Virus genome (UHGV): UHGV-1773670 | Length of the DNA stretch: 13,657 nt | Source: a virus | Direction: 5' to 3' (one strand) | Part shown: positions 6,001-12,000 of the stretch, piece after piece | How positions within the stretch are numbered: position 1 is the stretch's first letter | Layout: each line of letters begins with the position of its first letter | Position numbers: made by a program

Positions 6001-9000
6001 ATCAGCAGAATCCTTCAGGATTTGGTGAGTTTGTTGATCACCTTGGGATGGCTGCGCTTGGTCCGATTGATTACTTCAATGTTCAGGACAAGATAGCTGG
6101 TCGTGAGATTGACCGAGGCAGACTGGCAGAGACAATCCGCAGCAATCAGGCTGGCGAGGCGCTAACAGCGCGTGGTCAGAATATCACGATGCGCGGTCAG
6201 GATTTATCGATGCAGAGAGCATCAATGAAAGGGGCGGTTGGGAATAATGAGCGTACAGTTCAGTTAGCAGATGGCAGAACTGTAACGGTAGGCGGGAAGC
6301 TTCACGGCGCTGGGGCTAATGCGTTCTACGAAGGTATCGACAACGAGGGGAATATGGTTCGCGTTCCTGCTGGTTCTATTGCCGCTCCGGCTACATCGGC
6401 AGCAAGCGCGCAGAATTACGCAATGAAGAAAGATCTTGATGCAATTTCTGGTGCATCAATTGACGATCTTGGCTTCATGACTGGCATTACAGGCTCTTCA
6501 GGTTCTCCTGCTCTTGGTGCAGATATTCGTAGCCGTGCATCTGGTGGTGATCAGAGGAAACTATACAACGCTGCACAGCGAATCCAAGGAAAGATGCAGA
6601 ATCAGGGCATTGCAGCAGCCAGAGACATGGGGGCATCCGGTATCAACACCGTTGCAGAAGCAAAGATGTATTTTCAAGGTATGCCACAGGTTGATTTCTC
6701 AAGCCCTGAAGCACTGCAACAATCAATGCGCGACATTCAGCAATATACCGACAATTACAACCAGCAATATAACGTTAATGTCGGTAATGGCGGGAAGAAA
6801 TCATCAAGGCAACAGCCAGCTACTCAGCAATCAGCAGGAGGTAGCTACACGTCAAAATCAGGCATTCAATTTACGGTGGAATGATGAAAGTAACTGCAAA
6901 CGGTAAGACATTTACCTTCCCTGATGGTACGAGCACGGAAGATATTGGCACCGCCATTGATGAGTATTTTGCTGGTCAGGCTGTTCAGCAACAAACAGTT
7001 AATCAGGCCAATAATGCACCAACACGGGAAGAACCATCATTGATGCAACAAGCTGGCGATTGGCTCACTGGTGGTCAAAGTGCAGGGCAAATTGCAGAAC
7101 AGGCTGGTCGTGGTCTGGTAAACATACCATTTGACGTATTACAGGGCGGCGCAAGTCTGATTAATGCAATCAGTCAGGGGCTTGGTGGCCCCAAGGTTTT
7201 GGATGATGTTTATCGTCCAGTAGACAGACCGACAGACCCCTACGCTCAAGCTGGAGAAACAATTGGCGGGTATTTAGTTCCAGGAGTTGGAACGGCAGGA
7301 AGCATGGCTATTGGATCACTGGCAGAGGCCGCAAATCAGAAAGGTGATTTCGCACAAAATGCAGCTAAAAATGCCGGAGTTAACCTTGCCGCTCAGGGTG
7401 TTCTTTCCGCAGCAGCAAAGGGAATAGGGCGTGGAATAACGGCTATAAAAGGTGATATTGCGCCAGAAGTGGCAAAGAAAATTGCCACATCAGAATCGAT
7501 GGGCGTGACACCAATGACATCTGATGTTATCCCGCCGAAAAATGCTTTCACTCGCGGACTTACTCAGGATGCTGAGGGGGCTTTGCTCGGGACAGGCTCA
7601 AAGCGAGCGGAGCAATATGCAACGCGTAGTAAGCTGGTAAGCAATTATTTTGACCGTTTTGGTGAGTACAACCCTGATGATGTGGTGAGATCTCTGACCA
7701 CCACGTTAAGGGGACGGAAGGATGCCGCTGGCGCTGTTATCAATGACGTCACCAATAAAATGGGTAATGCCGCAGTTGATACCACAAATACCATGAATGC
7801 TCTGAATACAGCGATCGCAAGACAGGAACGGCTTGGGACTTCTGCCAATCAAAACCTGCTTACATCCTTGCGTAACCTACGTGAAGAATTAGCAAACCCT
7901 GCAACTGATTTGGATGTTACGTTTGATCTCTTGCGCCAGCACAGAACAGCATTTAGATCTAATGTTCAGGGAGATGCCATGGTCTTCCCCAACCAGGCAA
8001 AAGCAGCTACCAATATGGTAGAGAATGCAATGTCAAAAGACCTTCGTAACGCAGTTGCCAAAAACCTCGGTGCTTCAGACGCAGCAAAATACCTTAAAGC
8101 AAATTCCGATTATGCAAACGTTTATAATAAGGTGCTTAATAAAAACATTGCTAACAAGCTCAACAAGGCAAGCAGTGAAGCCAGTCCTGAACTTATAAAT
8201 ACTGTTGTATTAAGCAGAAAACCATCTGACGTGAAACGAATCTGGAGCGCATTGGATGATAAAGGGAAAGATGCTATGCGTGCAGCTTACGTCAGCAAAA
8301 TAGCGGAAAAGGCCGGTGACTCTCCAGCCAAGTTCATCACGGAAGTTAATAAGCTGAAATCTCAGTCAGGCGGTGAAATTTACAACACTATTTTTTCTGG
8401 AAAGCACATGAAAGAACTTGATGCTCTTCATGAAGTTCTACAGCAAGCAGCAAGATCAGACACCGCAAATGTAGTAACTCAGACGGGGCAATCGCAAGCC
8501 AACAGGATAAGGACGATTGGCGCAACTACGACTCTTGGCGTATCAATGGGGCTTGAGGCTGGTTTCGGTGCAATGATGCGCTTGTATGAATCCAAAGCAG
8601 CAAGGAATGCGCTCTTACGTCTGGCAAACACTAAAGCTGGAACGCCAGCTTATGAAAGAGCGCTAAATCAGGCGGCTACTGCCGTGCGCCCGCTCTTAGT
8701 TAACGAAGCTACCCGGCAGTAGCACTGTAAGCCAAGGACGGCATTTATTTTATAGTTTTTATGAATTCTTTATTAAATCCCTTTGCTTCTCCGGGGTATC
8801 TTCCGAAGACAATTTTTATAAAAACAGAAAAAATAAAGATAGCAACGCTTAACAACAATTGCAGTATCATTGGAACCCAAAGAACTACAGGCTCTATATT
8901 CATGAAACCAAATATTCTTCCGGCGATCATGGCGAAGTACCACACTGTTATCAGCAAACTTAGTGGCATATGAATTACTGATATTACCAATCCAAGAGCA

Positions 9001-12000
9001 TCAGTAATTCTGTTTTCAAATTTTTCAGGGGAAAACTTTTCTTTAAGGTAATTCAGTGCGCAGGCCTCATTCTCTGGATTTTCAGCATTTTTCCCTATAG
9101 CAATAGAAATCTCAGATATCCTTGATTCAATTCTTTTACGTTTAATAAAACTAGAAAAAAAGAACCACGCAATCTGCAACCCTATCCCCAGAAATAGAGT
9201 TGCGGCAACTAGCACAGCGTAACTCATAGAATCAGACACACCAACCTCCTTAGTTTTGCGCAGGATACCATGAAAAAAGTTAACATTGGAAACGTACCAA
9301 AGATGCTCGTTCCGCTCTTTGAGAGCGGTACAATTGTGTTTTGTAGAGACTTTCCAGAATGGCAACGCCTGCATCAAAAACTTGGCGTTGACGTGCATGA
9401 CTCGGACGCCAACGGAGCGTCTCATACAATGAGTAGCGAGAATGGTGTTTTGCATGTGATAGGCGTGTTCAATGGCAAACTATCTACTATTGCCCATGAG
9501 TGCGCTCACATGGCATTCGATATCTGCTCAAGGGTAGGTGTTGATGTTGAACCAGGAAGAGCCAACGAGACTTACTGCTACTTAATGAGCAGGCTTGTTG
9601 AGTTCTGCGAGCGACATATCAAAAAGCCGGAGTGACCCGGCTTGATTATTACTTTTTGCTGTCTGGAGTTCGCTTATCCAATACCCAGCCATGACCTGGC
9701 TTTGTTGTTGGTGGAAGCCTTTCGTTGTCCTTGACGGTTGCAAAATTGTCTTTCTTACCGCCGCGTGGGCCAACTTCTTGGTATATTCCGCCGTTTTTTC
9801 CTGTGTTTTCACCTGGTTTTTTCGCCATGATATACCTCAACATACACCCGTTATTGGGCGATTAAATATTGATCTCATTTTATAAGTAGTCAATATGGCC
9901 CAGGTAAATGCAAAAATTAACCCACCTTCAGGTGGGTTTTTTGTACAAATCCTTCAGCGTATCAAACACCATCTTCTTAACAAGCTCTGACTGCTCATCA
10001 GCGATGCGTTCCGCATCGTCTCGATAGCCTGAAATTTTGGATGGCTTTGATACAGCATCAGTCACTATCTGAACTAATTCTGAATTAAGAGAGCGGCCAT
10101 TGGATTTGGCTCGCTGTTTTAGTTTTTCCTTTAATTCGTAAGGTAGCCGCAGATTAAATTGCGGGTCATCTCTTCCCATTCTTGATGCCTCGCTTTTGTG
10201 AGTGGATCGGCATCTTATTATCTGCTGGTTGCATCCTCAATAAGACCACAGTGGTCTCTTTGTTTGATTAATAATGCATCACTGTGGCAATGCTGCGGCG
10301 ATTCCTTGTATCTGGAGCAAATTAAATGACAGACATTACAGCCAATGTTGTAGTGAGTATGCCTTCGCAACTCTTCACTATGGCGCGTTCTTTTAAAGCC
10401 GTAGCCAATGGCAAAATTTATATCGGTAAAATTGACACTGACCCGGTAAATCCTGAAAACCAGATTCAGGTTTATGTAGAGAACGAAGACGGTTCTCACA
10501 TTCCTGTTTCGCAACCAATAATCATTAACGCTGCTGGATATCCGGTATATAACGGACAGATTGCCAAATTCGTTACCGTGCAAGGCCATTCTATGGCTGT
10601 TTATGATGCGTATGGTGCGCAGCAGTTCTATTTTCCTAATGTGCTGAAGTATGATCCTGATCAGTTACGGCAGCAATTAGAAGACCCAGATGGAGCGAAT
10701 AAATACCCAAAACTTCAGATAGCAAGATGGAGAGACAGTTATGATGTAAGAGGTTGGGGGGCTATTGGTGATGGTGTTCATGATGACACATCAGCTCTAT
10801 CAGAATTACTTTCTGTTGCAACAGGTGGTGAAAAGATAGATGGGCGAGGGCTTACTTTTAAAGTATCAACTCTTCCAGATGTCAGTCGATTTAAAAATGC
10901 TCGTTTTTTATTTGAGAGAATACCGGGTCAGCCTCTTTTTTATGCTTCTGAAGATTTTATCCAGGGAGAGTTATTTAAAATTACAGATACACCGTGGTAC
11001 AACGCCTGGACGCAGGATAAAACGTTTGTATATGACAATGTCATCTATGCGCCTTTTATGGCTGGAGACCGCCATGGTGTAAATAACCTCCATGTTGCAT
11101 GGGTTCGCTCAGGAGATGACGGGAAGACCTGGACAACGCCGGAATGGCTTACAGATTTACATGAAAACTATCCCACAGTTAACTATCACTGCATGAGTAT
11201 GGGGGTTGTCAGAAATCGCCTTTTTGCTGTAATTGAGACGCGGACCGTGAGCGGAAATAAACTGCAGGTTGCAGAGTTGTGGGATCGCCCAATGAGTCGC
11301 AGCCTTCGCGTTTATGGTGGTATAACGAAAGCAGCAAATCAGCAAGTCGCTTATATTCGCATTACTGATCACGGATTATTTGCTGGTGATTTTGTCAACT
11401 TCTCAAACTCTGGTGTTACAGGTGTTACCGGGAATATGACGGTGACTACTGTTATTGATAAAAATACTTTTACAGTTACGACGCAAAATACCCAGGATGT
11501 GGATCAGAATAACGAGGGTAGATACTGGAGTTTTGGTACATCATTTCACTCGTCACCATGGAGAAAAACCAGTCTTGGAACTATTCCTTCTTTTGTTGAC
11601 GGAAGCACTCCTGTTACTGAGATTCACAGTTTTGCGACGATTAGCGATAACAGTTTTGCTGTTGGCTACCATAATGGTGATATTGATCCACGCGAGCTTG
11701 GGATACTCTATTTCTCTGATGCTTTCGGTTCTCCTGGTAGCTTTGTTCGCAGACGCATACCTGTAGAATATGAGGCGAATGCATCTGAGCCATGTGTAAA
11801 ATATTATGATGGCATTCTGTATCTGACGACCAGGGGGACATTAAGTACTCAACCCGGTAGTTCATTGCACAGAAGCTCTGATTTAGGTACATCATGGAAT
11901 TCTCTTCGCTTCCCAAATAATGTTCATCACTCAAACCTTCCTTTTGCCAAAGTTGGCGATGAGCTGATTATTTTTGGCAGTGAGCGCGCATTTGGTGAGT

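Follow-up and report, generated by a model that had tools for sequence, protein, structure and literature searches.

We are highly confident that the gene at positions 8745-9239 on the minus strand of the UHGV virus genome UHGV-1773670, a stretch of 13,657 nucleotides (nt) that we call the window, is the superinfection-exclusion gene sieA (type A) known from P22-like phages, and is carried in a defective K1-specific (CUS-3-like) prophage of Escherichia coli. The gene is already known and its setting has already been described, because Leavitt et al. reported type A sieA in P22-like prophages of E. coli; they placed the sieA-like genes of this species in such prophages, between genes 16 and 9, and assigned them to type A or type B (PMC10883804). 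The finding has little weight as a discovery, since the gene, the location of its product, its phenotype and its occurrence in P22-like prophages of E. coli are all published. Its use is more practical: the majority of RefSeq records name the protein "hypothetical," and these labels can be corrected to SieA. By analogy with P22, CUS-3-like K1 phages would be expected to fail at the stage of DNA entry in strains bearing sieA, here of a K1-type lineage, and this would bear on such phages when they are considered for typing or therapy.

Identity, start codon and control region of the gene

The open reading frame (ORF) has 164 sense codons and a TAA stop, and the encoded protein is 92.7% identical to P22 SieA over 164 amino acids (aa) in a pairwise alignment (95.6% for the coding DNA). 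When 50,697 phage records were searched by tblastn, 41 matched, all of them P22 or P22-like Salmonella phages. P22 SieA itself was covered at 100% with ~92% identity, and 40 of the 41 records had at least 80% query coverage at ~92% identity, the majority being labelled sieA or superinfection exclusion protein. The profile PHROG 7745, "superinfection exclusion SieA-like," matched residues 1-164 of the 164 (E=7e-109). The motif FxRYPxEAxxFNK, which occupies residues 145-157 of P22 SieA and is the best-conserved feature of all SieA types according to Leavitt et al. (PMC10883804), is found at the same residues of the window protein. In E. coli EC931, RefSeq annotates identical coordinates as WP_001519614.1. 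Every feature of type A SieA that can be tested in sequence is present. The features of the gene and its immediate surroundings are as follows.

8745-9239, minus strand: coding sequence of sieA with 164 codons, a stop and a GTG start, type A SieA (from P22 identity, PHROG 7745, the motif and the hydrophobic helices)
9245-9250, minus strand: Shine-Dalgarno sequence AGGAGG, read from the sequence and the same in P22
9270-9300, minus strand: putative promoter PsieA, from its position and its identity to the promoter annotated in P22 (13861-13891 of the P22 record)
8723-8744, no strand assigned: spacer of 22 nt between the convergent stops of gene 16 and sieA

P22 SieA (NP_059639; NC_002371, 13336-13830) and the window gene are alike in their 164 codons, GTG start, AGGAGG, upstream region, three helices, motif and neighbours. 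They differ in host, E. coli for the window and Salmonella for P22, and at 12 of 164 residues. These substitutions (L26F, N30S, L37I, V44I, K53E, Y60C, V61A, R73K, I85V, I91M, I132V and N153K) are mostly conservative, and the ratio of nonsynonymous to synonymous substitution rates (dN/dS) is 0.33. They could reflect a tuning of the E. coli allele to the ejection proteins of K1 phages.

At the composition of the segment, 164 codons in a row would lack a stop with a chance of ~3e-6, and no shuffle out of 2000 of the region 8700-9300 attained the observed open run. The G+C content of the ORF is 35.4% (32% at third codon positions), which is lower than that of the window (45.7%), of gene 16 (47.2%) and of the ORF on its other flank (46.2%). 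P22 has the same order of genes (gene 16, sieA, an hkcC-like ORF, orf59a, mnt, tailspike), and positions 8300-10179 are colinear with P22 at 88% nt identity. These results bear out the initial annotation, which had described an A+T-rich, compositionally distinct multi-pass membrane protein of ~165 aa, preceded by a strong AGGAGG ribosome-binding site and transcribed opposite to the structural (late) operon between gene 16 and mnt, where P22 carries sieA. Its proposal of a candidate superinfection-exclusion or injection-blocking function is likewise supported, by the homology to SieA, the PHROG profile and the P22 gene order. Homology to an unrelated housekeeping membrane protein would have counted against that proposal, and no such family was matched in Pfam, NCBIfam or the PDB. 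More generally, scans of the protein against Pfam, NCBIfam and PADLOC returned no family, the PADLOC-DB 2.0 defence-protein profiles gave 0 families at E<=0.01, and a sequence search of the PDB gave no match. An Rfam scan of the entire window found no RNA family.

The start codon of sieA has been called uncertain in the literature (PMC10883804). Comparative evidence favours the GTG at 9239, because unrelated foreign ORFs in other prophages open at this same GTG (see below), and AGGAGG stands 5 nt ahead of it. An in-frame ATG at 9227, which would give 160 aa, is less likely: it lies 17 nt from AGGAGG, and the shared GTG opens the reading frames of two cargo genes unrelated to sieA. A mechanical list of ORFs gives a longer frame of 236 aa starting at ATG 9455, and the frame indeed stays open to that position, as it does in P22. 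That this longer ORF is the true product is nevertheless exceedingly improbable, and we rejected it. The extension would overlap a conserved gene on the opposite strand, the hkcC-like ORF (PHROG 1365, E=2e-39), and would include the promoter; the ribosome-binding site is placed for GTG 9239; the sequence common to prophages with unrelated genes at this position runs exactly to that GTG, where two of these genes open; and the P22 and RefSeq annotations both give 164 codons.

The control region is also conserved. The 100 nt upstream of the GTG, Shine-Dalgarno sequence included, have a single mismatch relative to P22, at window position 9259, and all the bases aligned to the PsieA annotated in P22 are identical. 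PsieA is therefore presumably active in the window, as judged from this identity, and in P22 the 85 base pairs (bp) upstream of sieA are enough for exclusion in single copy (PMC10883804). A simple sigma-70 consensus scan did not flag PsieA, in agreement with the low transcription of sieA reported in lysogens (PMC10883804). The two minus-strand promoter-like sites returned by the scan, at 9893-9865 and 8776-8747, are neither of them upstream of the sieA start, and promoter-like sites in the region showed no excess over shuffles. No terminator-like hairpin was found in the 22-nt spacer at 8723-8744.

Membrane topology and the proposed mode of exclusion

Three hydrophobic segments, at about residues 6-30, 79-106 and 116-140, have a mean Kyte-Doolittle value above 1.6 over 19 residues, as expected from the multi-pass protein of the initial annotation, for which transmembrane helices are indeed predicted. 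Lysine and arginine are distributed unevenly between them: the loop 31-78, which starts with KRKR, has 10, the turn 107-115 has 1 and the C-terminal tail has 6. By the positive-inside rule, this charge distribution favours a topology with the N terminus out and the C terminus in. A single-sequence AlphaFold2 model was all-helical, with helices at 2-51, 57-68, 71-109, 117-147 and 152-163 and a break at 110-116. As the model, made without an alignment, was of modest confidence (mean predicted local distance difference test score, 67.4; predicted template modelling score, 0.43), we used it for its helix pattern only, and this predicted pattern is compatible with three membrane helices. FLAG-tagged P22 SieA was found exclusively in the inner-membrane fraction (PMC10883804).

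The type B SieA of the E. coli prophage HS1 and the type C proteins of Providencia, Morganella and Proteus resemble the window protein in genomic position, C-terminal motif and the three core helices, and type B has the same exclusion spectrum as type A (PMC10883804). By their published description, types B and C differ in having an N-terminal extension of 30-40 aa with a fourth helix (PMC10883804); this is absent in the window protein, whose first helix begins at residue ~6.

What is known of the function comes from P22. A single copy of P22 sieA with its 85 bp upstream lowered the plating of P22 by at least 1e7 and abolished the release of potassium, and SieA reduced lysogenisation 1e5-fold with no other phage gene being required (PMC10883804). 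Escape called for combinations of the substitutions G532W/P546S in gp16 with T338I, T341I, A348T or G350D in gp20, and hybrids with the ejection proteins of HK620 were partially resistant (PMC10883804). P22 SieA also excluded a K1 phage, CUS-3, in E. coli EV36, to a level of 1e-8 or below (PMC10883804). By analogy, the window allele would act like P22 SieA, and its contact with the ejection proteins is presumably direct. A weak promoter of its own would drive transcription of the gene apart from the late operon, and translation would start at the GTG that follows AGGAGG. The 164-aa protein would then insert in the inner membrane by three helices, with its N terminus in the periplasm and with the loop 31-78 and the C-terminal tail carrying FxRYPxEAxxFNK in the cytoplasm. 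After the adsorption of a P22-like phage and the release of the ejection proteins, SieA would stop the gp20/gp16 conduit from forming or from working at the inner membrane. The outcome would be no DNA entry, no potassium leak and neither lysis nor lysogeny, with other phage types unaffected.

The ejection proteins encoded in the window itself retain most of the positions involved in escape. The gp20 homologue has the equivalents of the SieA-sensitive residues T338, T341, A348 and G350, and the gp16 homologue has that of G532. The equivalent of P546 (residue 550) is a threonine, and P546S contributes to escape in P22; we draw no conclusion from this single position.

Several points weigh against this interpretation of the gene and its action. 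As Pfam, NCBIfam and PADLOC gave no curated model and the PDB gave no structure, the assignment to the family is based on pairwise identity and one PHROG profile. Of the 12 residues at which the window allele departs from P22 SieA, six fall in the 31-78 loop, and the function of the allele is carried over from P22. The match of PsieA to the sigma-70 consensus is poor and the scan was negative; expression in this decayed prophage is assumed. A direct binding of SieA to gp16 or gp20 is so far hypothetical (PMC10883804). Finally, the predicted topology puts only ~5 + 9 residues in the periplasm, a poor fit to direct contact with gp20, which is periplasmic.

So small a periplasmic part of SieA would favour contact with gp16 inside the membrane, or else that a host factor, for example YajC, is masked. 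In the latter case, gene and phenotype would be the same and exclusion would be indirect, SieA hiding an inner-membrane factor of the host that the conduit needs. We regard this as a possible but rather unlikely explanation. It was raised by Leavitt et al.; P22 cannot inject without YajC, and a high multiplicity can saturate exclusion. Furthermore, one set of highly divergent ejection proteins is excluded by two SieA types with just 24% identity, and a conserved host target would explain this more easily. However, the escape mutations lie in gp16 and gp20, and the partial resistance given by the HK620 ejection proteins suggests that phage proteins are recognised. Escape mutants still require YajC, a result that does not separate the two models. 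We retain a direct action of SieA on the ejection proteins as the working model.

An injection block by a membrane protein has counterparts in other phages. HK97 gp15, Sie2009 of Tuc2009 and Ltp of TP-J34 are also prophage membrane proteins that block the DNA entry of related phages, with escape mutations in the presumed conduit protein (PMC10883804). They differ from SieA in their targets, which are the tape-measure proteins of phages with long non-contractile tails instead of gp16 and gp20, and the source states no sequence relationship between them and SieA.

Exchange of cargo at the sieA position

The position of sieA is of interest beyond the gene itself. In P22-like prophages of E. coli that lack sieA, homology to the window ends at the stop codon of gene 16 (8721) and resumes at 9237-9246, that is, at the start and ribosome-binding site of sieA. 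Between these limits, the same strand carries another, unrelated gene, for which three alternatives were found, all without a known function.

Alternative cargo 1: lipoprotein of 161/171 aa with an LAGC lipobox
Alternative cargo 2: protein of 109 aa with a single N-terminal hydrophobic helix
Alternative cargo 3: protein of 122 aa with a signal-peptide-like N terminus

The sequence upstream of all three, promoter included, is the same at every base as far as AAGGAG. For two, the identity goes on to the end of GTTGGTGTG, and it is with this GTG that the foreign ORF begins, the lipoprotein gene being the exception. None of the three has a Pfam match or a convincing PADLOC match. At the level of sequence, this comparison shows the sieA position behaving like a socket for expression that stays constant while its envelope-protein cargo can be exchanged. 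The "ant moron" region is known to vary among P22-like phages (PMC2629481). We found no description of the shared start signals at the sieA position in a search of the literature that was not exhaustive. One may further suggest, tentatively and with doubt prevailing, that the position is a fixed socket and more than a single gene. If its alternative cargo genes were exclusion functions, made by the prophage as SieA is, the socket would mark several uncharacterised proteins that block phage entry.

Carrier prophage, distribution and neighbouring genes

Positions 1-13478 of the window are 99.99% identical to E. coli EC931, where the element lies between ybhC and ybhB. It is a defective prophage, in which a deletion has fused codon ~439 of terL with codon ~10 of gene 20, the junction lying at window ~5522-5535. 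This deletion takes out the portal, scaffold and coat genes and genes 4, 10, 26, 14 and 7, and most early genes are missing too. The terL ORF that is left has 441 aa, against 470-471 aa in HK620 and SW4848. The prophage differs from P22 in being defective, in having a tailspike with K1 endosialidase domains and in lacking arc and ant. Strain SW4848 has an intact counterpart at the same ybhC/ybhB site, with an identical SieA protein (WP_001519614.1).

The deletion architecture occurs in one of the 5426 complete E. coli genomes, EC931, and decay is therefore recent, so that an intact sieA ORF is in itself no evidence of domestication. The idea that sieA has been kept in the remnant as a domesticated host gene is unsupported, the architecture being found in one genome only and an intact twin prophage being known. 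For the same reason, one could argue that sieA here is an inert relic, unexpressed or no longer excluding, whose ORF is intact because of recent decay and not because of use. The prophage is without the portal through gene 7 and much of the early region, and after recent decay the integrity of an ORF is little guide to selection. Still, we find this improbable. The ORF is intact, as are its Shine-Dalgarno sequence, start and promoter region, and all of these are nearly the same as in functional P22; SieA is independent of other phage genes; and the identical protein in the intact prophage and the dN/dS of 0.33 relative to P22 also speak against an inert gene.

Type A sieA was found in 35 of the 5426 complete E. 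coli genomes, with 95-100% nt identity, and the adjoining hkcC-orf59a-mnt segment in ~500 genomes of the same set. A separate record, NZ_CP063485.1 (39,096 bp, from E. coli EM03-18-08), has sieA at 4685-5179 with 99.6% nt identity, besides a chromosomal copy in the strain. This may be the genome of a P22-like phage assembled as its own replicon.

The neighbouring genes and signals are listed below.

5529-6884, plus strand: gene 20 homologue, ejection protein (Pfam Inj_translocase, E=2e-76; 64% identity to P22 gp20)
6881-8722, plus strand: gene 16 homologue, ejection protein of 613 aa (75% identity to P22 gp16; PHROG 770, DNA transfer protein)
9270-9635, plus strand: hkcC-like ORF, 121 aa, with a HECAH motif (PHROG 1365, of unknown function)
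9624-9643, no strand assigned: terminator-like hairpin that can be read from either strand, placed as is the mnt terminator annotated in P22
9649-9828, minus strand: orf59a homologue (PHROG 3202, E=7e-31), annotated in EC931 and P22
9928-10179, minus strand: mnt repressor gene (Pfam Arc and Repressor_Mnt)
10326-13271, plus strand: tailspike with P22 head-binding and K1 endosialidase domains (Pfam Head_binding, End_N_terminal, End_beta_propel, End_tail_spike and Peptidase_S74)

The gene 20 homologue has lost its first ~9 codons by the deletion, and the hairpin divides the mnt-orf59a transcript from sieA. The hkcC-like ORF, for which we use a name from PMC2629481, is divergent from sieA and overlaps the promoter region of sieA with its 5' end. 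The ORF is likewise conserved in P22, without annotation in the P22 RefSeq record. Its HECAH is a motif of the HExxH type, and its sole similarity in the PDB, which is non-significant (E=0.09), is to the region of the active-site helix of thermolysin.

Away from sieA, an ORF of 174 aa at 3126-3650 on the minus strand, between a KilA-N gene and the small terminase gene, lies in a stretch of lower G+C content (~0.38-0.41). It matches PHROG 5483, of unknown function, and no Pfam family, and it may be another moron. At the other end, window 13428-13657 includes a perfect tandem repeat of the 7-nt unit TCAAGAC in 7.3 copies and, from 13479, sequence matching a copy of IS1 located elsewhere in EC931. 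In EC931 and SW4848 the TCAAGAC tract is much longer, uninterrupted and ahead of an acyltransferase gene. This tract may resemble the phase-variable heptad tract of neuO, the K1 capsule O-acetyltransferase gene of CUS-3.

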